The notes under the pieces: generated by a model
The model's input: the letters and a program-made list of their open reading frames with translations, nothing else
What the model was told of the DNA's origin: nothing
The model's database searches: none
Made by a program: the position numbers and the translations under genes
Virus record (IMG/VR): IMGVR_UViG_3300009156_000281
Location: 1 to 28,546 of that record
DNA from: a virus
Taxonomy: Duplodnaviria; Caudoviricetes
Length of the DNA stretch: 28,546 nt
Direction: 5' to 3' (one strand)
Part shown: piece after piece, positions 9,863-28,545 of the stretch
Layout of the letters: every line of letters begins with the position of its first letter
Position numbering within the stretch: position 1 is the stretch's first letter

Positions 9863-11727
9863 TGTCCCTCCGCGACCACGAGCCGATTTCGTTTTCGCAG
9901 TTCCGCGGCACTTTTGACCGGGGGGAGGACGAGTCTGTCCCCCCGGGTTTTTTCAAGGGGTCGAGGAACATACAGTTCATCAATCAGGGGATTAAGACGA
10001 GGGATGGCTCTGCAATCGATACGGCGGAGACTGGGCCTATCCGACGCATTGCGATTTACAAAAGGATAGGAGAGGTCGCGCGCCTCCTTATTCTCAACAA
10101 CGCTGGCGTCCTTTTCGACTCAATAACGCACGTCGCAATACTTACCATCCCGGCCATGTCTGACTTTAGCATGGTCTCGATGTTCAACCGAGCTTACATC
10201 ACTCCGCACAACGGCCTCCGAGGTCTCCCGGGAGAGAAACTTTATGTCTATGAGGGATCAGGAGTGGCACGAGCGGCGGGCGGAACAGCTCCGCCTCCAA
10301 CGGGAATGGCAGCAGCAGAGGGAGTTGCGGGGAACTTCGACCCGGGAATTCATCTTTTCGCAGTTGCGTTTGAGACTGCATCAGGATACATTACACCTTT
10401 CGGCTCCTCCTGTGCTCTCTCCTCCACGACCGGAGGAAAGAAGGTAGACCTTTCCGCCATCCCGACTGGGCCTCTAGGAACTGTTGCGCGTGTTTTGATG
10501 GGAACGAAGGATGTAGCAATCAATGGGGTCTTCTCCGGGGACTTTAACAACCAGACTTGGTATGTAATCCCGGACGGGAGAATCCCGGACAATTCTACAA
10601 CCTCCAAGAGTGTAAGCTATTTCGACGCTGACTTGCAGTCAGACATTTCCTACCTCTCAGAGCAGATGGGGTCTATCCCTGCTGGAGTAGGAGTCAACAT
10701 CTATCGGGGCCGCTTAATTATTTGGGGTGAAGATGTCAACGAATCAATCGTTAGAGCTTCCGCCATTGGACAGCCGGAGTCCTTTGACGAGGCCGATGGC
10801 TTCGTTACCATCAATCCCGGCGATAGTGGCGGTGGTGTCCGATTCTGCTTCGAGTATCGAACTCAGCTTATTTGTTGCAAATCTCAGCGATCCTACATTA
10901 CGCAGGATAATGGAGATAATGCAGGAAGCTGGAAAGTTGACGCTCTCGATAAAAGTGTCGGGACCGAATGTCACGGAGTTGGAAAAATTCTCGACTTTGG
11001 CGAGGACGTTCGAGACCGCGCCTTCGTCGCAGATAGGAGTGGGCTTCAGCTTTATACTGGAACTTTCTCCGACACTGAGGTCACCAGCAACATCTCCGAC
11101 GTCTGGGACCGAATAAACAAGGCGGTTTTCCACAAGGTCGAGGTCGCGGTTGACCCTCTCAAGGGCCTCACTTACGTTGCTTGCCCTCTGGATGTAGCGA
11201 CGGAGAACAACGCCATCATCGTCGTGGATTGGTCAGAAGGTTTGACCGTCGAGGATATTCGGTTCACCATTTGGGAGTTCCCGTATCGACCGCAGACCGT
11301 CGTTGTAGACGTGAACGAGGCGGATAAAGAGTCGGTCATGAAGTTCGCTGGCCTCGACTCTATCAACGTATTCAAGATAGTGGAGAATCTGAAGCTCGAC
11401 AACAACCTCGCTATTGATACATGGGTGGAGTTCCCTCTCCTCCCCCAGGACGACGATTGGCCGGTAAATCACTTCACCGGATTTCGCGCGCGAATTAAGG
11501 GGGTTGGCTACCTCCTAATAAATCTCACGAGCCTTGACGACGCACAGCAGGTTGTAGTGCCTCCTGTAACTCTGAATCCTCAGCCCGGACGCCCGCTTTT
11601 CCGGGGTTTCAACTTTACCTCTGAGCGGTGTTCGGTGAAGCTAAGGACGAACCAGAGCGGCAACTACTTTATGATGACGAACTTCAACTTGTATTACAAG
11701 CTCCTCTGGTCGACCCGAGCTGAGTAA
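9862..11727 (+). CDS. Tail hub/nozzle (tail tubular protein B / P22 gp10-like stabilisation protein)
   Basis: 621 aa, beta-rich. Hallmarks of podovirus gp10/gp12-like proteins: N-terminal F.G.......PPG.....NI....G..TR.G, YRGRLIIWG and S..G.PESFD. Confidence 0.7.
   Translation: MSLRDHEPISFSQFRGTFDRGEDESVPPGFFKGSRNIQFINQGIKTRDGSAIDTAETGPIRRIAIYKRIGEVARLLILNNAGVLFDSITHVAILTIPAMSDFSMVSMFNRAYITPHNGLRGLPGEKLYVYEGSGVARAAGGTAPPPTGMAAAEGVAGNFDPGIHLFAVAFETASGYITPFGSSCALSSTTGGKKVDLSAIPTGPLGTVARVLMGTKDVAINGVFSGDFNNQTWYVIPDGRIPDNSTTSKSVSYFDADLQSDISYLSEQMGSIPAGVGVNIYRGRLIIWGEDVNESIVRASAIGQPESFDEADGFVTINPGDSGGGVRFCFEYRTQLICCKSQRSYITQDNGDNAGSWKVDALDKSVGTECHGVGKILDFGEDVRDRAFVADRSGLQLYTGTFSDTEVTSNISDVWDRINKAVFHKVEVAVDPLKGLTYVACPLDVATENNAIIVVDWSEGLTVEDIRFTIWEFPYRPQTVVVDVNEADKESVMKFAGLDSINVFKIVENLKLDNNLAIDTWVEFPLLPQDDDWPVNHFTGFRARIKGVGYLLINLTSLDDAQQVVVPPVTLNPQPGRPLFRGFNFTSERCSVKLRTNQSGNYFMMTNFNLYYKLLWSTRAE
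9918..9953 (+). terminator. Intragenic intrinsic-terminator-like hairpin
   Basis: ccgggg..ggac-gagtct-gtccccccgg stem followed by gtttttt, about 55 nt after the stop of 9548..9862. Confidence 0.4.
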
Positions 11728-13184
11728 TGACCGAGATTGATACCCAACAGCTTCTCGGAGACATTGAGTCAGAGCTCCGTAAGCAGCACATCGATGTTCA
11801 AGGGCTGATCCAGGGAATCCAGCTTGAGAACCCGAGGTTATACCAAATCCTGATGGAGTTGAACGGCGGCCTTCTCACGATGCAAGAGGAGATCTTCCCT
11901 CTTATCATCAAGGATAGGCTTCCGACTACCATCGGTGAGATCCTCCTTCAGCCAGCTTCGTTCACCTTTGCATTCCAGCCGACCTCTGTCCGGTTCTTCT
12001 GGAGCCAAGTTGAGCACGCATTTGGTTATGAAATTCGAGAAGGCTTACTCTGGGATACTGCGACTTTTCGAGTTCGCACTGCTTCTTTGCAGGTGGATCT
12101 GGATGCTCTTTTATCTGGCTCTTATTACTTTCTCATCAAGACGATAAACACGGCGGGGGAATACTCGGTAGATACACGCTCGGTCCTCGTCGATGTTCCG
12201 GCGATCTCCGCAGTTACTCTTGCGCGCGAAGTTATCGATAACAACGTCCTCCTGAGATGGACTCTCCCATCTTCAACTTTTCGGATTCTCTACTATGAGA
12301 TTGCTAAGGCAGGAGTCGTAATTGGGCAAGTAGATTCCACCTTCTTTTCCACTTTCGAGAACGTAGCGGGCACGTATGTCTATTCGGTCCTTGGCGTCGA
12401 TGTGGCTGGTAATCGAGGGGCACCTGCGGATATTACCGTTCAGGTTGCCTCCCCTCCGGACTACGCGCTTCAAGATAAGAGGACTTCCCAACTCCTTGGG
12501 TCTCGTGTTGACATAATTCGGCAACCCCTCATTCCCTCCCTCCTTGGTCCCTGGTTCCCAACGACGTGGGAGGAGCACTTCGTAAATAATAACTGGGACC
12601 AGATCTCGGACCAGCTAGAGGCTGACTACACGATCTACATTCAGCCTACAGACCTGAACGGAACTTACGATGAGTATATAGACTATGGAACGGTGATTTC
12701 CAATGTCATCGTCACTATAGCCTTCAATTTCAACCTCATCGTCCAGGATGTTGCTGTAATTATTGAAATGTCCTCATCCTTGGACAATGCAGCATGGACT
12801 CCGGTGGTGACTGGGTCGAGCCAGTATTTCCCTTCTCTCCGACATCTGTTCCTTAGGTTGAAGTGGAATGCGCTGGATGATAGAAGCCTCCTGGAACTCT
12901 GGCATCTTACCATCTCAATTTCAGTAAAGAGGGAGAACGATGGTGGTGAGGTTTACGCAACTTACAATGCTGTTAATGATCCAGGGACCTACGTCGCGTT
13001 TACTAAGCCTTTCAAAGACGTGGAATCCATCACTTGCACCACAAAATCTGTTACAGAGCCTTACTATGCAATCTTTGACTTCGCGGATGTTCCGAATCCT
13101 CTTGGATTCTCCGTCTACGTCTTCGACTCCTCGGGAAATCGAGTGAAGCGGACGGTAGACTGGAAAGCTCGGGGAATCGTCTAA
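11727..13184 (+). CDS. Tail protein with fibronectin type III-like domains
   Basis: FN3-like patterns (VRFFWS....GYEIR...YYFLIKTINTAGEYS; VLLRW.....YYEI...YVYSVLGVDVAGNRG) and a C-terminal F.KPF...GF.V......VDW.A.G motif common at the ends of tail proteins. Confidence 0.7.
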   Translation: MTEIDTQQLLGDIESELRKQHIDVQGLIQGIQLENPRLYQILMELNGGLLTMQEEIFPLIIKDRLPTTIGEILLQPASFTFAFQPTSVRFFWSQVEHAFGYEIREGLLWDTATFRVRTASLQVDLDALLSGSYYFLIKTINTAGEYSVDTRSVLVDVPAISAVTLAREVIDNNVLLRWTLPSSTFRILYYEIAKAGVVIGQVDSTFFSTFENVAGTYVYSVLGVDVAGNRGAPADITVQVASPPDYALQDKRTSQLLGSRVDIIRQPLIPSLLGPWFPTTWEEHFVNNNWDQISDQLEADYTIYIQPTDLNGTYDEYIDYGTVISNVIVTIAFNFNLIVQDVAVIIEMSSSLDNAAWTPVVTGSSQYFPSLRHLFLRLKWNALDDRSLLELWHLTISISVKRENDGGEVYATYNAVNDPGTYVAFTKPFKDVESITCTTKSVTEPYYAIFDFADVPNPLGFSVYVFDSSGNRVKRTVDWKARGIV

Positions 13185-14350: not shown

Positions 14351-14704
14351 ATGGAAGAACTTGTCCTGACCGACCCCGTAGTGAAACCTGAGGAAGTCAA
14401 GAGCAACTTCAAGATTATTTCACTAACGCTGGACCATGAAGCGATAGCTCACACTGGGCCTCCTCCTGCAACCGTCGAGGCGGGCCTTGTGTCAATCCGA
14501 CTGAAGGACAATCTCGGTGCGTATTACAATCATCAGTATACAGGCAAAACCGCAACAGACTTTATCAAATACATTAACACCGCAAACTTCACGACGAATT
14601 CTTTGCACAAACGGATTCTTCAGCGACTGTCAGCTGATGGAATCCTGCCCGGGACCGTAACTGGAACGCCTGATCCTCCTGCAGGAGTCTTTGATGCCGA
14701 ATGA
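14351..14704 (+). CDS. Hypothetical protein (possible fibre chaperone or accessory)
   Basis: 117 aa, SD AGGAGG, directly after the fibre gene. Confidence 0.65.
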   Translation: MEELVLTDPVVKPEEVKSNFKIISLTLDHEAIAHTGPPPATVEAGLVSIRLKDNLGAYYNHQYTGKTATDFIKYINTANFTTNSLHKRILQRLSADGILPGTVTGTPDPPAGVFDAE

Positions 14705-14894
14705 ACCGAAAGAGCTACCACGTCAGGAAATCACTCTCGATGAGCTTTATCAGGTCGTGGGTGAGCTAGAGATCGTTCGCCGGAAGTTTTCTCAGCAACT
14801 TCAACAGCTCTATACCCAGGTCGACGAGATGGCGAAAGAGATTGCGAACCTGAGGAACAAAGATGGCGGACTGGCTAAAGCCGACAATCACTAG
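14694..14894 (+). CDS. Short coiled-coil protein
   Basis: AGGAG 6 nt before ATG 14694; heptad pattern LYQVVGELEIVRRKFSQQLQQLYTQVDEMAKEIANL. Confidence 0.6.
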   Translation: MPNEPKELPRQEITLDELYQVVGELEIVRRKFSQQLQQLYTQVDEMAKEIANLRNKDGGLAKADNH

Positions 14895-15492
14895 CAATTA
14901 CGTTACCTTCGTCGACGAGGTGAAGGAACGTGATTTCGACGCTATCTCTCTGCAATACAACGCGCTCGTAAACCCCCCGAACGCCTCGGTGAAGCTCGTC
15001 CGCTCTCCTGTCAAGTTCCAGCAGTGGATGACGGGAGCGTGGAACGAGCTGACCCTCTCCGTCGAGGGAGGAGGAACTGGAGCGAATAGCATCGCTGGTA
15101 TTCGGACGGTTATTGGCCTCGGATCAATGGCCTACCAGAACTCCAATGCTATTGCAGTTACGGGTGGGACGATCCAGAACATTACGTCTGGAGGAAGCTA
15201 CTTCAACCATCAGGGTGGGACAATAACGATTCTCCAGCCCACTATAGCAGGTCACGCGCTCACGATAAATGCGCCTGCTAACGGATACCAGGGGATACTC
15301 ATTGCGGGTTCGGCTGGTCCTATCTCGCATGGAATGCACATTGCGGCGGGTGCGAACCACAACGATTTCCCACTTCGGATCTTGAACTACAATTCCGCGG
15401 TAGAGCTTTTCAGAATCACAGGTGGAGGCTCTGTTTGGATTCCAAATACCCTTGCTATCCCCGTTGGTGCAGATAGATGGGTTCCCTGGTAA
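14863..15492 (+). CDS. Tail fibre-like protein
   Basis: Contains the common fibre motif GGTGA....IR..IGLGSMAYQNSNAIAVTGGTI and an ELFRITGGGSV-type beta repeat. Confidence 0.7.
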   Translation: MADWLKPTITSNYVTFVDEVKERDFDAISLQYNALVNPPNASVKLVRSPVKFQQWMTGAWNELTLSVEGGGTGANSIAGIRTVIGLGSMAYQNSNAIAVTGGTIQNITSGGSYFNHQGGTITILQPTIAGHALTINAPANGYQGILIAGSAGPISHGMHIAAGANHNDFPLRILNYNSAVELFRITGGGSVWIPNTLAIPVGADRWVPW

Positions 15493-16413
15493 ATGGCTAA
15501 GCGTCCCGGCTCCCTTTGGGTCGAAGGGAATAGCCTCAATTACGTAGACGCATATGGTAGGGAGTGGTCCTGCGCTGGTGCCCTCATAAAGAACATAGGA
15601 TGGAGCAGACCTGGCTCTCTATGGGTTGAAGGATACTATATCTTCTACGTCGCGGAATCAGGCACTCAGGTTTTCCGGGTGCAGGCAACCTTCACTGGAG
15701 AATATCACGGGAGAACTGGCTCTCTTTGGGTCGAGGATTGGACGCTTCGGCACATTGGCGGAGGCGAAGCTGCTGAATTCTACGTGCATGATAATCTTGC
15801 TCACCAGAATGTAACGCACGTAGATACCGGAATCGCAACTCACACCAATACGCATACGAACATTGGACATCAGAACATCGCACACGTCAACTGGCACTCG
15901 AACGTAGCACACGTCAATTATCATACCAGTTATGAGCACGCCAATTATCATGGGAATGTGCATACAAACGTCCCGCATGATGATGATCACTTTGATTTGG
16001 CACATGGGAATACGCACTCAAACATTAATCCTTATGGTTATCATCACGCAGATTGCACTCGGTATGATAGAAATACTGTAATCGATCATAAGGACCATAT
16101 CGACGCGCCTTACCCGTATCCGCAACACAACGATGGTTACTACTTCAAGGATCATTGCGACTGGCATGACGACCTCCAACATGCAAACACGCATATAAAT
16201 TCGCCGGGCCAAGCTGCACACACGAACTATCACGGGAACACGGAGCACGTTGATTACTGGACCCAAACAGCGCACTCAAACGCGCATGGGAATACGCATA
16301 CGAACGTCGCGCACACAGACGTTCCTCATGCGAATCATAACGACACGATTCACCAGAATGTGGCCCATGCAAACGTCACCCATCAGGATCAGCCTGTTCT
16401 CATAGGATACTAA
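15493..16413 (+). CDS. His-x-Asn/Asp repeat protein (putative radical SAM substrate, tail-associated)
   Basis: N-terminal ~98 aa hold three R[PT]GSLWVE repeats. Residues 99-299 hold 36 HxN/HxD tripeptides plus one HxS. Confidence 0.85.
   Translation: MAKRPGSLWVEGNSLNYVDAYGREWSCAGALIKNIGWSRPGSLWVEGYYIFYVAESGTQVFRVQATFTGEYHGRTGSLWVEDWTLRHIGGGEAAEFYVHDNLAHQNVTHVDTGIATHTNTHTNIGHQNIAHVNWHSNVAHVNYHTSYEHANYHGNVHTNVPHDDDHFDLAHGNTHSNINPYGYHHADCTRYDRNTVIDHKDHIDAPYPYPQHNDGYYFKDHCDWHDDLQHANTHINSPGQAAHTNYHGNTEHVDYWTQTAHSNAHGNTHTNVAHTDVPHANHNDTIHQNVAHANVTHQDQPVLIGY
15502..15738 (+). repeat. Three 35-aa (105-nt) period repeats with an R[PT]GSLWVE core
   Basis: Cores start at 15502, 15607 and 15712. Confidence 0.85.
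15787..16389 (+). repeat. H-x-[N/D] tripeptide array, His spacing mostly 4 or 5 residues
   Basis: Counted from the translation: 36 of 38 His in this stretch have N or D at +2. Confidence 0.95.
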
Positions 16414-17609
16414 TGACTATCGAATACCTCCCCGTTGGTATCGCTTGCAACATCGCTTGCAAATACTGCTATCAGGAAACGCAAAGAGATGCAGGCAATA
16501 TCAACGTGCCTCGGGATTGGGACCGGGTGCGCTTCCAGCTCGACCGTCTGAACCATGACTTCGCGGTCTTTGGTGGAGAGCCTCTCCTCGCTCCTATGGC
16601 CCATCTGGAGGAGGTTTTCAAATACGGCTTCGAGAAATACAAGAAGAACGGAATCCAAACCAACGGATCTCTTATCACCGACGAACACATCGAGATGTTT
16701 GCGAAATATGCGGTCCATGTGGGTATCTCGATAGATGGACCCGGTGAGTTGAATAGTGTTCGCTGCACGAACGATTTGACAGAGAAAACAGAGAGCGCGA
16801 TCAGGAAGCTATGTGATCGGGGAATCCCTCCCTCCCTCATTATGACGATCCACCGGGGGAACAATGATATTCCTGCTCTCACTCGCTGGCTTGATGATCT
16901 TGCTACTATCGGCTTACGCTACCTTAACTTCCACGAAATGGAGCAAGAGTGCGGACAAACAGAACCCGCCCTCTCCGAAGCCGAAACCATAAGGAACTTC
17001 CTCCAGCTTTACGAGTGGTCGAAGGGAACGAAGTTCTGGATTAACCCATTCGTCGATATTCGCTCTCTACTCACAGAGATGGAGCCTCACGCTAACTGCG
17101 TCTGGCACGCCTGTGACCCTCAGACTACCGAAGCCGTTCAAGGAATCAATCCCGATGGATCAATGTCAAATTGTGGTCGAGCTTATAAGGACGGCGTCAA
17201 CTGGCTCAAGGCTGATACCCCCGGATTCGAACGATATGTTGCGCTTTATCACACTCCTCAAGAACACGGCGGATGCGCAGGATGTAAGTATTTTGCTTTC
17301 TGTAAAGGTCAGTGTCCGGGCACTTCGATCGGAGGAGATTGGAGAAACCGCTCCCTAGAGTGTCGACTCTGGTATTCTCTTTTCGATGCTATTGCGTCGG
17401 ACAATCAAGACAAACTTCTGCCTCCTGAGGTAGTGGATAAGAAGGTCGAAGAACTTCTTGGTCGCTGGGTTTCTCCACAGAATACCGAGCATGGAGACAA
17501 GCATGGGGATTCCCCTCACGGGGACCAACATGGCGACCACACGGACTACGGACCTGGAGTCGAAGCTGTATTCTTAGACGAGAAACCAGAATGGTTACTG
17601 ACAAACTAG
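16413..17609 (+). CDS. Radical SAM enzyme with SPASM domain (anSME / peptide maturase-like)
   Basis: CNIACKYC (CxxxCxxC), GGEPLL, IQTNG, ISIDGP; SPASM cysteines C....C...GINPDG...NC and CAGCKYFAFCKGQC...C; HGD-repeat tail. Confidence 0.93.
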   Translation: MTIEYLPVGIACNIACKYCYQETQRDAGNINVPRDWDRVRFQLDRLNHDFAVFGGEPLLAPMAHLEEVFKYGFEKYKKNGIQTNGSLITDEHIEMFAKYAVHVGISIDGPGELNSVRCTNDLTEKTESAIRKLCDRGIPPSLIMTIHRGNNDIPALTRWLDDLATIGLRYLNFHEMEQECGQTEPALSEAETIRNFLQLYEWSKGTKFWINPFVDIRSLLTEMEPHANCVWHACDPQTTEAVQGINPDGSMSNCGRAYKDGVNWLKADTPGFERYVALYHTPQEHGGCAGCKYFAFCKGQCPGTSIGGDWRNRSLECRLWYSLFDAIASDNQDKLLPPEVVDKKVEELLGRWVSPQNTEHGDKHGDSPHGDQHGDHTDYGPGVEAVFLDEKPEWLLTN

Positions 17610-18952
17610 AGCGATTAGACTTCTCAATCCCGGATTTCTTCCGAACTATCTGGGTGTCGGAGCACGCGAAGGATACCTGGGAGTCCAGGATTCATGCGAT
17701 AGCCTCGAACTGGCCCTACATTGAGAGGGCTACTTTGACTCAAGGCTTGCGGGATGGAATTCTCCAAACCATTCTGCCTCAGCAACTTCCGGAGGTTCAG
17801 AACTGGGCCTTTGAGAAGCAAATCCCAATGGTTATCTTGGGTCTGGATGGAGAAACCGGCCTCCCATATGGAAACGCGGCTGCTCCATATCAGGAAGGAA
17901 GACCATTCTCCTATAGGATCTATTTCGGGAAGGCTCCTGAGAACTTCCAGAAGTATTGGAAGGAAAGTAATCAGCTCGCTATTGGGAGAGCTTTGGGATA
18001 CCCTCCCTGCTGCATTGAGTTCTTCACGAAGTATTGGAAGGGTGAGGGGTGGCACGACCTCACTTACCTTTCCTACGACGACCCGAACCAGAAGAACTTG
18101 ATGTATAACAATATCTTGCTCCGCTCTCTGGGAGTTCGTGCAGTTTCCCATTTGCCATGCTCCGTGAACTGCAAACCTTCCATTCGAATAGGGATGGACG
18201 TATTCTCGGTCATGGAGAAGTGTGGTCATCAGGCAGAGATAATTGAGTGGATGAAGACCCTCCTCTCGATGCCGATGAAGTGGTCCTCGCTCCACGGGAT
18301 TGCTATTACTACGACGCCTCTATTCAAGTTGATAAACGCGACCGACCCGCTTCCCTCAGTAGCAGACCTCCATCTGGCGAGTGACTATTATCCTCTGGAG
18401 GGTGCGAGCGGAGTCCTCTTTCCATTTCAGAAGGTGCAGCATCTAAGACTCTCAAAGTCGAAGGATACTGATTTTCTGGACAATGGATTCGGGTCGCGGA
18501 GCGCGATGGAAGCGGCGCATCGGTTCATCATCTCGATGATACCGAAGGAACTCTCTGGGGGGATAGCTACCAATGTCCTGGATCTTGGTTGCGGTAATGG
18601 TCGCCTCCTACAGAGTATTAAGAAACTACATCCGTATGTAACAGTCTACGGAGTAGATACAAAGTCGATGAAGTTCGACGGGTTCACTCAGGTAGACATT
18701 TACGACTACGAATGGGAGGGGCAATACGAGCTAGTTCTCATGTCGGTAGAGAGGTTGCATGAAGTAGATAAGGAAGTTGCCTCTGACTTGCTCCAAGCAA
18801 TTAGGTTGCATTCCAAGTATCTCCTCCTTTCCACCTACAACAATTGGATGCACGGATTCGACCATGTAATCGACAAGTTGTTCTCTGTAGTTTCTGTCGG
18901 CCTCGATCCTGCACTCGGGTATGAGGCTAAACTTCTTGAGAGGAAAATCTAA
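17591..18952 (+). CDS. DUF483-like Cys-rich domain fused to a class I SAM-dependent methyltransferase
   Basis: IGRALGYPPCCIEFF (from 17981) and HLPCSVNC..S (18149-18172) resemble DUF483 motifs as recalled. VLDLGCGNGRLL (from 18575) plus VYGVD are methyltransferase motifs I and II. Confidence 0.75.
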   Translation: MVTDKLERLDFSIPDFFRTIWVSEHAKDTWESRIHAIASNWPYIERATLTQGLRDGILQTILPQQLPEVQNWAFEKQIPMVILGLDGETGLPYGNAAAPYQEGRPFSYRIYFGKAPENFQKYWKESNQLAIGRALGYPPCCIEFFTKYWKGEGWHDLTYLSYDDPNQKNLMYNNILLRSLGVRAVSHLPCSVNCKPSIRIGMDVFSVMEKCGHQAEIIEWMKTLLSMPMKWSSLHGIAITTTPLFKLINATDPLPSVADLHLASDYYPLEGASGVLFPFQKVQHLRLSKSKDTDFLDNGFGSRSAMEAAHRFIISMIPKELSGGIATNVLDLGCGNGRLLQSIKKLHPYVTVYGVDTKSMKFDGFTQVDIYDYEWEGQYELVLMSVERLHEVDKEVASDLLQAIRLHSKYLLLSTYNNWMHGFDHVIDKLFSVVSVGLDPALGYEAKLLERKI

Positions 18953-19596
18953 TGGCCTATGACTTGAATCGATGCCCGCAGACCGAGGCAGAAGCACAGG
19001 ACTACATCTTCACGCTTTACAACCGCACGATCGGTCAGCCCGCGAACGACTGGCAGGGCGTGATGCAGAATAGCAATCTGCCTCACAACATCTACACTCC
19101 TGGCCTCAAGGCAGACGGAACCTGGCCGATGTTCGGGTTCACGCAGATGTGGTCGAACGGCCCTCGGGGACGCATTTTTCTGCCGAGTCAGAGCGCCGAC
19201 GAGAACAACTACTACACTCGTCAGATTCAGGTCATCGAGGACGCTCCTGAGGGTGGATTGCGTTGGGCGTGGAAATACATCTCCGGATTCGCCTACTCGC
19301 CGGTTCAGGGAGTCTCAGAAGTGCCTCCCGGAACTGGTCCTCCTCCCGCAGTCATCATCGGCGGCGGTCTGACCGAGGCCCAGGTTCAGGCGATGATTGA
19401 CGACAGCATCGCTCAGGCCATCGCGGGTTTTCAAGGGGTCCTCTACGGGGACAAGATAGCCCTGAGGACGAACTCTGGACTTCTAGCAGGTATCCAGGGG
19501 GGCGGACCCACCGTCGAGGACCAGCCGGTGAACCTTATTGGGAAGAATGATCCTCCCCATGCCTGGGAGTCATTCGAAGTCGTAAAGGGTGAATGA
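18952..19596 (+). CDS. Hypothetical protein with a single C-terminal fascin-like (beta-trefoil) repeat
   Basis: GDKIALRTNSG.....GGG.....L.......AWESFEV matches one fascin-type foil; it is preceded by a Pro linker and a short amphipathic helix. Confidence 0.6.
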   Translation: MAYDLNRCPQTEAEAQDYIFTLYNRTIGQPANDWQGVMQNSNLPHNIYTPGLKADGTWPMFGFTQMWSNGPRGRIFLPSQSADENNYYTRQIQVIEDAPEGGLRWAWKYISGFAYSPVQGVSEVPPGTGPPPAVIIGGGLTEAQVQAMIDDSIAQAIAGFQGVLYGDKIALRTNSGLLAGIQGGGPTVEDQPVNLIGKNDPPHAWESFEVVKGE

Positions 19597-19976
19597 AGAT
19601 TCGTCCTTTCCAGGATTCGGATATGCTCGCCATAGACGAAATCTGGAAGAAGCACCACAGCAACGACTTTTCCGTTCCGAACCGAGAGACTCGCTTGGTC
19701 GAGTGGGTAGCGGAGGAGGATGGGAAGGTCGTTGCTTACGGGCAAGTCAAGCTCTTTGCCGAGGCTATGATAATCCTTGATAAAGATGCCTCACAACGTG
19801 CTAAGATAGAGTCCTTAAAGGGTCTGCTTTTTGAAGCTTTCCGAGGAACTAATTTAGCAGGTCTTGAGGACATCTATTGTTTCATCCGAGATCCTTCCTT
19901 CGCATCTATCCTCATCAACCATTTTGGCTTCGAGCTAGTCGATAATCCAGGCGAACTTCTATTGAGGAAGGTGTAA
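19593..19976 (+). CDS. GNAT-fold acetyltransferase-like virion assembly protein
   Basis: MKIRPF..SD...I, VAEEDGKVVAYG and HFGFE are GNAT-like; it precedes the ejection genes, the slot occupied by T7 gp13 and P22 gp14. Confidence 0.7.
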   Translation: MKIRPFQDSDMLAIDEIWKKHHSNDFSVPNRETRLVEWVAEEDGKVVAYGQVKLFAEAMIILDKDASQRAKIESLKGLLFEAFRGTNLAGLEDIYCFIRDPSFASILINHFGFELVDNPGELLLRKV

Positions 19977-25300: not shown

Positions 25301-26293
25301 ATAAAGGCTGCTCGTGCTCAAGCAGCGGCGGGTGGAGCGAACAGAGGTCGGGTGCCGGGAGGAGGGAATCCGCCCTCTCCGAGACCTGGTGCTTCCCCAC
25401 CTCCAGGAGGACAGCCTCCTTCTACGGGTGCGGGAGCAGTTCCGAACAAACCAGCAGGGATTGGGGAGAAGGCGTGGAATGCGATGCTCCAGGCCAGAAT
25501 GACGGCGATGCTGTCAGGTCTGGCAATTCCCAAGTCGATGCTAGGGAACGTGGGAGCACACGCATTTGCGTCGATGGAGAGGAAGTCGATGAAACCTCTC
25601 CAGGAGCTTATGAATACGGGGGAGAATTGGAAGAATTTGAAGGCAGGATGGAAGGCGGGAGCTGTCACACCGGATGCTAACGACCTAGGGTTTGGTAAGT
25701 TCAACATTCCTGGTCGTGTCATGGGTGCATTCGATGAAATGTCGACCAAGAGCCTGCAAAGAGCTGGAATGACCGAAAAGGAAGCTAAGGAGATCCTCCT
25801 GACTTCTCCGACTACCTTTGGTAAATCCCTAGGCTTGCAGACTCCTCTGGGTAAGCTCCTGGTGCCCTTCCAAAAGACGCCCGCGAATACCATGAAGCAA
25901 GGATTCGAGCGCGCGTGGAAACACAAGGGTATCGGAGCCGGTGCAATAGGTGCGGGTGCTGCGATGGGAACGCAGACGGATGACCCGAAGAAGATTGCTT
26001 TGGCCTCCGCTCTAATGGGGCCATATGCTCTCCCATTCCTCCTCGGTGCCCTACCGACCGCAGGTGAGAAAGCAGTTCAGGGATTCTCTCCCATACCCGA
26101 ATGGTCGGTTCACAAATCGATCACGGACCCCTTTGCTCCCTTCCAGAAGCCAGGTTTTGCGCGGCTATTTGAGAAGAAGGGAGGAGACGCAAGCCTCTGG
26201 GGTAAGGAAGGGGATACGCGAATCTGGGAAAAGAAAAGCCCCGCCGGTCGGGCGAGGCCTAAGAGTTCCAACAGGCGCAGTCGGAGGGACTAA
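22385..26293 (+). CDS. Large putative ejection protein with a ParB/Srx-like domain
   Basis: 1302 aa, last gene of the operon, with Gly/Ala hydrophobic stretches near both ends; PYVTIDADGNYQIHDGHHRSTAALEKG around 24944-25024. Confidence 0.7.
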   Translation: MPRQKLSFDSPPPNLSFSSPTQAQEPQRPARRSFAEIEAEQSALLDKYEAEQGTGESIWENANRPRWTKPAEWGQQLGEFVESAPITSPMGLVRNKVAGAASRFAGNTVSQATSPVGAATLAATAVSGGAAAPLLGGRMAAGAAIPFAAGRVAQGIGALQTAHGIGEVGGGLSEGDYGRAGMGAVEVGFGALGLRNPGGKPRPTVGSNVGNVGLEDIGAPPTTTTGIRGTPMQPQGRPVGGPNLAGTDPTLTTQPRTIPLQGQTSPLRAHPRRMLPENAATPPPLQSDLPGPPRFIAGPAGTEVFPGNRSLGVVEKGRVSNVSAGMGGAQTPEKSAFEALVPDRYKRSAQGISDEGLTYNWRGETVEPPTPGLRLNPQGQLRPEKGFSMDFPQMVDKYGLEEAAARARVTEAEARKLLKGKPIVPAAKPKAKSKYPPPTLTGKQPKKVEATPPEVIAAAKKLQAMTQREAAPVATAAPVQGPNLGAMKTTELKALAAEGNTQAADILAKRAASPRQPTSLKERLANAIPERLKGETGAIGPGVGQLNVTKAALDDVDRQIAAAVKNGEPVEGLLADREDAYNAWQSARGVDPKAEVPRNALARGPRESLNPEFDARRQAMADDTARMERERLEKPFNQAEQDKVDDWNRRTDRSALYEGRNVNDIRTPLDERQLQVKAANDKMRQFSDERARWFSEQEEQLPEGEFFKPPPGRTKEDFNREYGRMQDERNALVERLYPEEVRALKSRPPDIDVEPIPTRPSSDDPRWLESRQHSSGVDAMLREDSNPNWERPPFRNVEDKPPFINTGEGSTIESGRLVPHKDWYAGQDRIDRGQVESVKEFGVSAPEAAARSKPYVTIDADGNYQIHDGHHRSTAALEKGEALDMNIEDYSPRDSWFRKTRNMTGYDSPFREAGSKAASKFSAAMDAAESKELGESSYDALIRSLASMRRRFGNETGAVGKNINPIIKEQARIKAARAQAAAGGANRGRVPGGGNPPSPRPGASPPPGGQPPSTGAGAVPNKPAGIGEKAWNAMLQARMTAMLSGLAIPKSMLGNVGAHAFASMERKSMKPLQELMNTGENWKNLKAGWKAGAVTPDANDLGFGKFNIPGRVMGAFDEMSTKSLQRAGMTEKEAKEILLTSPTTFGKSLGLQTPLGKLLVPFQKTPANTMKQGFERAWKHKGIGAGAIGAGAAMGTQTDDPKKIALASALMGPYALPFLLGALPTAGEKAVQGFSPIPEWSVHKSITDPFAPFQKPGFARLFEKKGGDASLWGKEGDTRIWEKKSPAGRARPKSSNRRSRRD
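26229..26258 (-). terminator. Intrinsic terminator for the leftward replication transcript
   Basis: Minus strand reads GCCTCGCC-cgacc-GGCGGGGC-TTTTCTTTT (8-bp stem, 1 G-U), about 30 nt after the helicase stop. Confidence 0.7.
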
Positions 26294-27501
26294 TTCCCCT
26301 CCTTCTGCATCTTCGAGTAGTTCTCAACTACGGCTGTAGTCAAGACATAGACAATCTCCTTCTTCGTGCTACCATTGAGAGAAATCAACTTAATCGTTAC
26401 CGCCTTCTGAGCCTCTAGGGATTCTGCAATTCGGTCCAGCTCGTAGGAGTCAAAGTCTGCCCAGTGTTTCTTGAGCATATTGACTCTGGTCATAGCGTAG
26501 CCGTGTTCTTTCCGCGAGAGCAATTCCTTCAGGAAGGTCGCAGTCCCCACCGAAGTTATCGACTTCCCGCCTCCCATAGAAACCCTGCGCGCACCCGGCA
26601 CGAAGTCCTGACAGGCGATAATAGCCTCTTGCACATCTTCCTCCTCCAAGACTAGGTTGACCTTTCTGGAGAGGGAGATGAGCATTGCCGCCTTCAGGAT
26701 GTGGTCGTGCAACCGCTCGATGGTCCCTGTGGTATCCGTATACTCCCCATCGGAGAAGTCCGCATACCACTTGTTGTAAATCTCCCGAGCACCGTCTGAA
26801 TACGTGAACTGACCACGAAGCTGAGATAGAACTTTCAGATACTTCGCAAGTTCTGGAATCTCGATAGACTCCTTAGGCTTGCTGGTCAGTGGGTTGACGA
26901 TGCTCTTCCTGTCTGCATGGATGATATTGGTGCGCGCCACGAATCCACCTCCGAGGGCGTTGTCCGGGACAGCGTCCTTGAAGTGAACTTCGTTACTCGC
27001 TCCAATCATCGTCAGACATGGATTCTTCAGCTTTTCCGAGCCGCTGCCTTTGGTGAGGTTTGTCCATTCGGGGTTGTAGTCGCCGTCGTATAGGTCTGTG
27101 AGGATGGTTAGTGCTTGTTGGTCTTGGATGATGAAACTTGCAAACTCCGAAGTCGTCAGGAATCCAGAAGCGTCAGTCAAGGGAGGGCCTCCATTATCAC
27201 TGGTCTTGGCTTTCTGAAGTTCAGTGATAATAGCTTGGATACTTGCCCTTCCCGAAATGACCCGAGTATTACCTACCTCTGTGACCAACCGTTTTGCTAG
27301 TGCTACGGGTGGCCCCTTTCTGATCCCGGATTTACCCACGAGCAGGACGTAAATGTTAGGGTATAGCTTGTAATAGAACTTGTCAAGATACACCTGATTT
27401 TTCACGACTGCTGCGATGGCTGACATACCGGCCCAGTAGTAATACTTTCTAGGACTCTCTGACTCCTTAGTTACTGACATCAGATGGTCCAGCCATGTCA
27501 T
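26290..27501 (-). CDS. DUF3987/YfjI-type P-loop NTPase, putative replicative helicase
   Basis: LYPNIYVLLVGKSGIRKG (Walker A-like), SEF (Walker B-like), LTDLYD, NPCLTMIGAS and GGFVAR (Arg finger-like); adjacent to the DNA polymerase. Confidence 0.75.
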   Translation of the reverse strand: MTWLDHLMSVTKESESPRKYYYWAGMSAIAAVVKNQVYLDKFYYKLYPNIYVLLVGKSGIRKGPPVALAKRLVTEVGNTRVISGRASIQAIITELQKAKTSDNGGPPLTDASGFLTTSEFASFIIQDQQALTILTDLYDGDYNPEWTNLTKGSGSEKLKNPCLTMIGASNEVHFKDAVPDNALGGGFVARTNIIHADRKSIVNPLTSKPKESIEIPELAKYLKVLSQLRGQFTYSDGAREIYNKWYADFSDGEYTDTTGTIERLHDHILKAAMLISLSRKVNLVLEEEDVQEAIIACQDFVPGARRVSMGGGKSITSVGTATFLKELLSRKEHGYAMTRVNMLKKHWADFDSYELDRIAESLEAQKAVTIKLISLNGSTKKEIVYVLTTAVVENYSKMQKEGN

Positions 27502-27510
27502 CTCGTCCCC

Positions 27511-28545
27511 TTAAGCTGCTACTGGTAAGTAATCGTGCATTCCATCACATCCTCTACAGCCCTTAACTTTGCACTCCTTGTAGTTCCGTCCGACCTTGGC
27601 TTCTGAAGGGATTATCAGCTTGCCACGAGAGAGGGTGCAGTTAGCGAAGTCGATGGGCTTATTCAACTCCTCAGTCATGATCTGCACGTATCTCTCGACG
27701 TAATCATTGGGGACTAATCCAACGAATGCGTCGTGAGCCTCCACTACGAACGGGGTTTTGCCTCCGATGAAGCGTGGGAGAACCTTGTCCGCCCAGAAGC
27801 GAGGAAGAGCTCGTAACCCAGCCTGTCTAAGGTGATCTGGGACAGTTGACTGGGGTATGTGCGCGTAGGCTTCTCGGTAGAGGTCATCTCCCCATCTACC
27901 AAAGAATTTGCGGTATCGTCCGAAAGGCGAGACAAGGACACGGTCGTTTTTGTCAATCGCATCCCTGATTTCTTTGTGAAAGACTTGACGGATAGGAGGA
28001 TTGAACTGATGGAACTTTTCGAGTATTTTGCCTCCTTGCCACTCAGAAATGCTGATGTTAATACCGAACTTCTTGGCGTCCGTATTAACAATTTGCATGA
28101 GTCTCTTTTTGCCCATGTCATAGTTTCCAGCATGGCGAGTTGTTTTACCGATAAACCTAAACTCAGGAGTAACTTTTTCAAAGGCCACACCAAATATCCA
28201 GGTCGATGTAAGCCGATGTATGTCAACTTTATCGTCGAACAACTTGAGGGTTTTTTCATCTCGTCCTAGGAGCGCGACAATCCTAGCCTCCGCTTGCGAA
28301 AGGTCGATTTCGACGAATGAGTAGCCTGGGTCTGCGATGAAGTAGGAGCGAAGTTCTGCCCCTATCTCACCGTGCTTTGTCATCGTTTGGAAAGCGAGTC
28401 CAATCTTTTCGGGTCGTAGGGGCTGCTTAAGGATGCTGTTAGAGCTTCGCCCGGTTTCAGTTCCACAGATTCTGACACTAGTTCGCATCCGTCCGTCGTA
28501 GTCAGGCTTAGCCTCAAAGTAAGTCCCCTTGGACTTACGTAATCG
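27511..28545 (-). CDS. polA: DNA polymerase family A, polymerase domain (5' partial)
   Basis: Frame is open to the window edge (RKSKGTYFEAKPDYDGRMRT). Shows TETGRSS, motif A DLSQAEARIVA, D[IV]H, motif B RFIGKTTRHAGNY, SPFGRYR and motif C AHDA. Confidence 0.93.
   Translation of the reverse strand, partial: RLRKSKGTYFEAKPDYDGRMRTSVRICGTETGRSSNSILKQPLRPEKIGLAFQTMTKHGEIGAELRSYFIADPGYSFVEIDLSQAEARIVALLGRDEKTLKLFDDKVDIHRLTSTWIFGVAFEKVTPEFRFIGKTTRHAGNYDMGKKRLMQIVNTDAKKFGINISISEWQGGKILEKFHQFNPPIRQVFHKEIRDAIDKNDRVLVSPFGRYRKFFGRWGDDLYREAYAHIPQSTVPDHLRQAGLRALPRFWADKVLPRFIGGKTPFVVEAHDAFVGLVPNDYVERYVQIMTEELNKPIDFANCTLSRGKLIIPSEAKVGRNYKECKVKGCRGCDGMHDYLPVAA

Follow-up and report, generated by a model that had tools for sequence, protein, structure and literature searches.

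The locus and its genes

We analysed a stretch of 28,546 nucleotides of tailed-virus DNA (Caudoviricetes; IMG/VR record IMGVR_UViG_3300009156_000281), hereafter the window, in which three adjoining plus-strand genes follow a tail-fibre gene. They encode a protein with a dense array of His-x-Asn (HxN) and His-x-Asp (HxD) triplets, a radical S-adenosylmethionine (SAM)/SPASM enzyme and a DUF483-like protein fused to a methyltransferase (Table 1). Our results suggest that the array protein is the substrate of the enzyme and is carried at the tip of a short tail fibre, where it may contact the host.

An earlier note on this DNA, made without database searches, had described the three genes as joined to one another and to the tail operon. 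The junctions are as it gave them: TAAATG at 15490–15495, TAATG at 16411–16415, an overlap of 19 nucleotides at 17591–17609 and TAATG at 18950–18954. The cassette likely also includes the fibre gene immediately upstream, which lay outside the coordinates of that note.

Table 1. Features of the cassette and of the upstream fibre gene; positions are those of the window.
Feature	Position	Strand	Remarks
Short tail fibre, 209 residues, modelled as a trimer	14863..15492	+	phrog_25747 tail fibre, E 5.5e-5
Fibre C-terminal docking motif [LFIV]xxP[VF]Gx[DN]x[WFY]	15448..15489	+	residues 196–209
Array protein, 306 residues: GSxW cap domain and His-x-Asn/Asp array	15493..16413	+	likely substrate, fibre-tip adhesin-like
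Three-repeat GSxW beta domain	15493..15804	+	residues 1–104; W9, W44, W79
36 H-x-N/D triplets	15787..16389	+	residues 99–299
Radical SAM/SPASM enzyme, 398 residues	16413..17609	+	CxxxCxxC at 12/16/19; Cys 229, 234, 254, 288, 291, 297, 301, 317
Putative specificity loop C254-G-R256-A257-Y258-K259	17172..17189	+	257 tracks HxN/HxD; 256/258 track xD/xK
HGD/HTD tail of the enzyme itself	17490..17546	+	residues 360–378; four HGD and one HTD, C-terminal
DUF483-like domain (residues 1–285) fused to class I SAM methyltransferase domain	17591..18952	+	453 residues

The array protein

The 36 HxN/HxD motifs counted in the earlier note are all present. They account for 36 of the 40 His residues of the protein, 23 in HxN and 13 in HxD, and are spaced mostly by four or five residues; a single His of the 40 has Ser at +2. 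In 100,000 shuffles of residues 98–306 the mean was 8.5 triplets and the maximum 20, so that 36 was never reached. The flanks of the array are Asn-rich, and its centre is rich in Asp and aromatic residues and holds two Cys. The array protein sequence contains no Gly-rich motifs and gave no Pfam domain.

In an AlphaFold2 model of the unmodified protein the predicted local distance difference test score (pLDDT) is about 89–98 for the GSxW domain and strands 296–305 are also confident, while most of the array lies below 50. The C-terminal strands probably complete the domain and the array probably loops out of it, because residues 1–104 and 296–305 are confident and the array between them is not. 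The fibre-like repeat that the earlier note saw in the N-terminal part is predicted instead to be a compact three-repeat beta domain. Neither a sequence search of the PDB with the array-protein profile (E <= 1) nor a fold search with the model (E <= 0.001) returned anything. A fold search of BFVD gave one strong match, a 342-residue protein of the same length as phiMa_29 from a Thermus phage discussed below, and for the GSxW domain the ESM Atlas gave no more than a match at 0.75. LlpA, the best VIA-align match, was rejected as the fold of the array protein because the match is too weak (Z 3.7, rmsd 3.5, 83 residues aligned).

Searching with a GSxW-domain profile gave 569 clusters (50% identity, E <= 1e-3). 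At least five HxD/N triplets are present in 86 of the best 150; the other 64, many of them fragments, do not have them and some carry other payloads. Six proteins have non-array payloads at either end of the domain (P0126, P0129, P0141, P0164, P0181 and P0227), and the domain therefore looks like a general fibre-tip mount.

The enzyme, its partner and their occurrence with arrays

The radical SAM/SPASM identity proposed earlier is confirmed by a Pfam Radical_SAM match (5e-18), by the fold matches and by eight SPASM-type Cys residues, which are invariant among 51 aligned homologues. The AlphaFold2 model (pLDDT 82.5) has anSME and then ChlB as its nearest solved folds. The best NCBIfam matches are to peptide maturases (AmcB, DynA) and to anSME, all far below cut-off. 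It is a large family; scoring 7999 candidates gave 1016 clusters at E <= 1e-40.

We considered 74 viral loci, which include near-duplicates, and 73 genome loci, these being the best 80 of 585 matches less seven distant ones (L158–L164). A non-redundant set holds 171 enzymes of less than 95% identity, 125 of them with a partner carrying at least eight HxD/N triplets. The earlier note had asked whether the proteins co-occur, and they do: an HxD/N-array protein is present in 64 of the 74 viral loci and a DUF483-like partner in 67, as well as in 72 of the 73 genome loci. On our reading of the locus maps, nine of the ten viral loci that lack an array end at a contig edge where the array gene would be expected.

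Members of the enzyme family are widespread among bacteria too, where the arrays take the form of short peptides, of proteins with twin-Arg leaders (14 of 44 partners) or of tails on giant proteins; in the cyanobacterial phylum the enzyme was found in two of 401 genomes. Some bacterial clusters (L105:6014–7940, L109:12178–14828 and L086:9110–9874) have short HxD tails with PqqD and NTP_transf_5 neighbours, and two cyanobacteria have a KilA-N domain fused with the HxD tail.

The enzyme itself ends in triplets, a feature absent from the list in the earlier note. Such a tail, of at least two HxD triplets, is found in 118 of the 120 nearest homologues, and by source in 49 of 56 viral loci as against nine of 68 genome loci. 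It resembles the substrate repeat in sequence. The enzyme gene is split in L002 and L012 (L012:10001–11197), and in L080 the whole cassette is fragmented, by assembly error or decay.

For the third gene, read earlier as a DUF483-methyltransferase fusion, Pfam gave matches below cut-off to DUF483 (1e-4) and to class I methyltransferase. The ESM Atlas places the partner with DUF483-labelled clusters at 0.93–0.94, and a sequence search of the PDB with the DUF483-like profile returned nothing at E <= 1. Conserved residues of the domain are C140, C141, H187, C190, C194 and H235. The partner is fused to the enzyme in 18 of the 73 genome loci and to the methyltransferase in 63 of the 74 viral loci. 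The methyltransferase is, judged from gene content, optional, because it is absent from the Thermus phages Cumys and phiMa.

Triplet residues and the enzyme

In many homologous arrays Phe, Tyr or Trp takes the place of His and Asp or Asn is kept at +2. One protein (P0249) has 12 F-x-N/D triplets and none with His, a number reached in none of 1000 shuffles. The Phe- and Trp-array homologues are known from sequence alone, without gene context, and Tyr arrays adjoin the enzyme in three loci (L155, L147 and L151). A W/F-x-N/D pattern is described for the substrates of OscB (PMC11002830), and cross-links from His C2 to Cβ are made by HaaB, YhhB and MicB (PMC11002830; PMC12912966). The replacement of His by other aromatic residues, together with the OscB-like pattern, therefore favours an aryl C–C link over metal binding or chemistry at the His nitrogens. 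The metal-binding role that the earlier note had offered as an option is weakened by the same replacements.

The third residue of the triplet is linked to the enzyme as well: in the alignments, the enzyme sequence changes in step with it. Among the 125 non-redundant array loci, residue 257 is Ala or Gly in all nine HxN-rich loci (at least 30% Asn), which fall into four lineages as counted on quick and FastTree trees, and in two of the 116 others, where it is Thr in 104, Val in nine, Met in one and Ala in two. Among 141 conserved columns, 257 alone departs in each of the nine HxN-rich enzymes. The fourth HxN lineage (L121) came to light after the rule had been set.

Arg256 is present in 166 of the 171 enzymes. 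Four enzymes with Asn or Leu at 256, Thr at 257 and Asp at 258 directly follow proteins that end in Y-x-K or H-x-K triplets; these proteins, of 830–1044 residues, belong to a Bacteroidota clade (L147, L150, L151 and L153). As aligned, the loss of Arg256 and gain of Asp258 in the Lys-array enzymes is a charge reversal. C254 aligns with C276 in the auxiliary-cluster region of anSME, a region that we take to line the active site, and the alignment gives residues 256–258 a putative place there. A precedent is offered by HtkB, in which Asp214 selects Lys at X3 (PMC11499958).

Taken with the co-occurrence, these patterns make it very probable that the enzyme acts on the triplets. That the reaction is an aromatic-to-Cβ cross-link is, by analogy, the likelier outcome, although held with less assurance. 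Of the earlier claim that the enzyme installs many cross-links, action on the array is thus what co-occurrence, covariation and the interchange of aromatic residues point to; the cross-link chemistry we infer.

Predicted mounting on the tail fibre

The gene just 5' of the array gene ends in the docking motif whether it encodes 94 or 1426 residues. Among 170 non-redundant loci the motif is found in 41 of the 52 with a GSxW domain and in none of the 118 without one. It stands on the adjacent gene in 38 of the 52 and is fused in three; the remaining 11 were unmatched as adjacent by the strict pattern. Homologues of the 14863–15492 fibre match tail-fibre PHROGs (33-row alignment).

A docking site formed by the motif and the GSxW repeats had been proposed before the complex was modelled. 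The model, of three copies of fibre residues 60–209 with residues 1–106 of the array protein, scored 0.87, against 0.01 for the best of three controls; 116 of 157 solved pairs reach the mark for such scores, as do two of 215 mismatched ones, counts that are only roughly valid for this complex. The runs share at least 98% of contacts, with a partner pLDDT of at least 87, and each of the three fibre copies makes contact through residues 196–209 with the repeats surrounding W9, W44 and W79. It is unlikely that the score reflects model memory of a solved relative, because none is found by sequence or fold.

Arrays without a GSxW domain are fused to a homologue of the central tail fibre J (L051, E 4e-47), to a collagen-like fibre (L067) and to a virion structural protein, from a scan for array fusions in which four of 18 proteins gave matches. 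The docking motif, these fusions and the complex model lend support, by inference, to the view of the earlier note that the product belongs to the virion as an appendage and is not a secreted peptide. Together they make it very probable that the array protein sits on the fibre tip; that it binds the host we hold with little more than even confidence.

Comparison with known systems

The gene trio is in print. In the Thermus phages Cumys and phiMa it has been called an 'rSAM module', with no function given in the parts of the paper that describe it, and section 3.4 guesses at DNA modification from cyanobacterial homologues near deazapurine genes (PMC11437467). The earlier note, which recognised no described phage system here, is therefore right for the repeats and the mechanism, which are absent from that source, where the main and supplement text make no mention of His repeats, and wrong for the genes. 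By tblastn, all three genes follow fibre genes in both phages and keep their order (Cumys_13/12/11 in Cumys), with 42–43% identity for the enzyme, about 30% for the array protein (Cumys_13, phiMa_29) and 27–28% for DUF483. The docking motif of the 14863–15492 fibre also stands at the end of Cumys_14. Every His stands in a triplet in both arrays (54 of 54 in Cumys, 53 of 53 in phiMa). These are pure HxD arrays accompanied by Thr257 and no methyltransferase, whereas the window phage is HxN-rich with Ala257. In a further phage, phiLo, the enzyme and the partner are accompanied by three large array proteins of 75, 104 and 58 triplets (phiLo_135–137, L010:17807–23663), encoded on the opposite strand 4–10 kb from the enzyme/DUF483 pair, with IS605 transposase genes just upstream of the enzyme.

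The triceptide synthases (OscB/GrrM, ChlB, HaaB, YhhB, HtkB and AmcB) are likewise radical SAM/SPASM enzymes encoded beside an aromatic-X-X substrate, and ChlB is among the nearest folds. Their precursors are short leader–core peptides, unlike the 306-residue protein of the window with its folded domain and 36 sites. The cassette also adds a DUF483-like partner and the tail of the enzyme itself, the enzyme is below all family cut-offs, and His-x-Asp/Asn links are not among the triceptide examples in the passages of PMC11002830 and PMC12912966 that list them. Judged from its genes, the cassette appears to work like a triceptide system while lying outside any characterised family.

In the HXS system (HxsA–D) a whole protein with His-x-X repeats is matured by radical SAM enzymes at the phage–host interface (PMC13128918). 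It differs in being bacterial and periplasmic, with five HxS repeats, two radical SAM enzymes and HxsD, and one +8 Da site. The window lacks a His-x-Ser effector bearing a domain that binds peptidoglycan, as well as the set HxsB, HxsC and HxsD; it has one radical SAM gene, and no Hxs model is among the best 25 of 59 NCBIfam matches. A term search of the main text of PMC13128918 found no mention of HxD, DUF483 or tail fibre.

A parallel in architecture is gp38 on gp37 of phage S16 (PDB 6F45), where one protein caps the fibre trimer through three conserved Trp residues 120 degrees apart (PMC6851490). Our model of W9, W44 and W79 would follow the same logic, and the distal repeat domain of gp38 is unusual, as is the array. 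The differences are that gp38 consists of a helical bundle and a polyglycine sandwich, whereas the predicted cap is all-beta with an aromatic-x-D/N payload that would need an enzyme, and that there is no sequence homology. anSME is the best solved match to the enzyme by sequence and fold, and its auxiliary-cluster Cys pattern aligns, but the identity is 18–19%, the score, 69.5 bits, falls short of the TIGR03942 cut-off (349), and the window has no sulfatase match. Our searches of the open-licence literature turned up no paper that describes the array as a substrate, docking on the fibre or the modification of a virion protein by a radical SAM enzyme.

Proposed mechanism and alternatives

We propose that the array protein caps the tip of a short trimeric tail fibre, one three-repeat GSxW domain binding the three fibre C-termini and the array looping out. 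The enzyme would cross-link many of the triplets, joining an imidazole carbon to Cβ of the residue at +2 with a loss of 2 Da each, and the links would make the array a stiff, protruding domain for contact with the host. The DUF483-like domain, with its conserved Cys/His site and frequent fusion to the enzyme, may be a helper, and methylation would be optional. We judge this mechanism as a whole, a fibre-tip array protein multiply cross-linked from aromatic residue to Cβ, to be somewhat the more probable account. More tentatively, and with a little less than even confidence, we suggest a general scheme in which many phages build a receptor-binding tip that is unfolded until a phage radical SAM enzyme installs dozens of cyclophane rings, carried by the GSxW adaptor on the fibre trimer, with loop 256–258 re-tuning the enzyme for Asp, Asn or Lys.

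Several observations weigh against this account. The threshold of 0.3 that defines an HxN-rich array was set after the first-pass result; a paired sign test on three or four lineages gives p 0.125 at best, with 0.05 out of reach; two Ala257 enzymes (L031 and L046) pair with pure HxD arrays; and the Lys swap counts as one event, because the four enzymes form one clade. In 46 of the 171 non-redundant loci no HxD/N array was detected, some of these being short contigs or having other triplets, and L128, L144–L148, L154, L156, L157, L096, L127 and L142 show no visible array. The first nine of these come from Bradyrhizobium and other proteobacteria; L128, L144 and L154 have confirmed neighbours of the B12-binding radical SAM type. 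The enzyme scores far below the cut-offs of the peptide-maturase families (80 against 425 bits for AmcB, 49 against 310 for GrrM/OscB, 39 against 450 for XyeB and 53 against 445 for YhhB), and by fold anSME is level with or above ChlB. The fibre docking is a model built on our own alignments, HXS shows +8 Da at one site and not many links of -2 Da in the passages describing it (PMC13128918), and a search of the open-licence literature found no experiments on the enzyme/array family.

The same fibre-tip triplets might undergo other chemistry: an HXS-like gain of carbon with loss of four hydrogens, oxidation at Cβ, epimerisation or change confined to a few sites; the methyltransferase would then contribute methyl groups. 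The +8 Da change at His-x-Ser of HxsA, which is made through radical SAM enzymes (PMC13128918), is a precedent, our enzyme falls outside every cyclophane family so far characterised, and a Cys/His-rich partner is almost always present, commonly with the fused methyltransferase. We nevertheless consider such chemistry rather unlikely, since the use of Phe for His fits an aryl C–C link and not His-nitrogen chemistry, the OscB substrates have the aromatic-x-D/N pattern, and Cumys and phiMa do without the methyltransferase. It is a good deal less probable that the modified protein stays out of the virion, either giving rise to processed peptides or acting in the infected cell or envelope in superinfection exclusion, defence or interference. 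The twin-Arg leaders, short pure-array peptides and PqqD neighbours (L105, L109) of bacteria would suit such a role, and HXS is described as an anti-phage effector matured by radical SAM enzymes (PMC13128918); against it, the array gene is translationally coupled within the tail operon, its product has an N-terminus that is not signal-like, its GSxW domain is docked to the C-termini of the fibre in the complex model, and fusions of homologous arrays to fibres exist. The earlier note had seen no peptidase or exporter, and we likewise found no match to peptidase, exporter or PqqD families among the 28 window proteins (Pfam/PHROG), the record being about 59% complete.

Dense His and Asp residues at i and i+2 can bind metals, and HxH iron sites occur in the fibre tip of T4. 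An unmodified array might thus be a metal-binding needle with His and Asp/Asn ligands, the enzyme doing something else or serving as a chaperone, and the predicted exit and re-entry of the array at one domain would be hairpin-like. Arrays based on Phe and Trp could not ligate metal, however, Lys arrays accompany a charge-swapped enzyme and residue 257 follows Asn versus Asp, and we regard the needle as improbable. The least probable of the alternatives, to which we attach very little weight, is DNA modification as suggested for Cumys and phiMa (PMC11437467). Support for it, and a further point against cross-linking, comes from a cyanobacterial locus (L248, 3768–17491) in which the enzyme and partner lie about 1.4 kb from dpdK/dpdD with no aromatic-x-D/N array. 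The neighbours of the module itself there are genes for a coiled coil with HDQ heptads and for a lectin-like coiled-coil protein, a 2144-residue protein being encoded alongside as well, no DpdD or DpdK homologue occurs in loci L001–L244 (phmmer E <= 1e-4), the fold is that of the peptide-modifying SPASM enzymes, and the enzyme covaries with the triplets.

If cross-linking of a fibre-tip array is correct, chemistry familiar from peptide natural products would be used to make a structural component of the virion, in the form of a poly-cyclophane polymer. It would follow that the enzyme is a processive, multi-site cross-linker of whole proteins with a predicted specificity switch, that DUF483-like proteins have a role, and that the C-terminal fibre motif and the GSxW domain form a new adaptor pair for fibre tips, seemingly with interchangeable payloads. 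The proposal is testable at once, because the module is carried by two cultured phages of Thermus thermophilus HB8, Cumys and phiMa.

Genomic setting

The cassette had been placed between fibre and ejection genes. The upstream tail genes are supported by PHROG matches, among them the tail protein at 11727–13184 (phrog_1727, 1e-17); the large genes 3' of the cassette, labelled there as ejection genes, have no Pfam or PHROG match. Elsewhere in the window there is a weak major-capsid match and an SU10 adaptor match below cut-off. A DUF3987/primase-like gene and a family A DNA polymerase open reading frame (26290–28488, minus strand) converge on the structural operon. The GC content shows no break at the cassette, no tRNA genes were found in the window, and there is no excess of promoter- or terminator-like sites. 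A gene of 127 residues at 19593–19976, GNAT-like by eye and with no family match, has homologues in 21 of the 74 viral loci, and a small coiled-coil-like open reading frame between the fibre genes (14691–14894) has homologues in 17.

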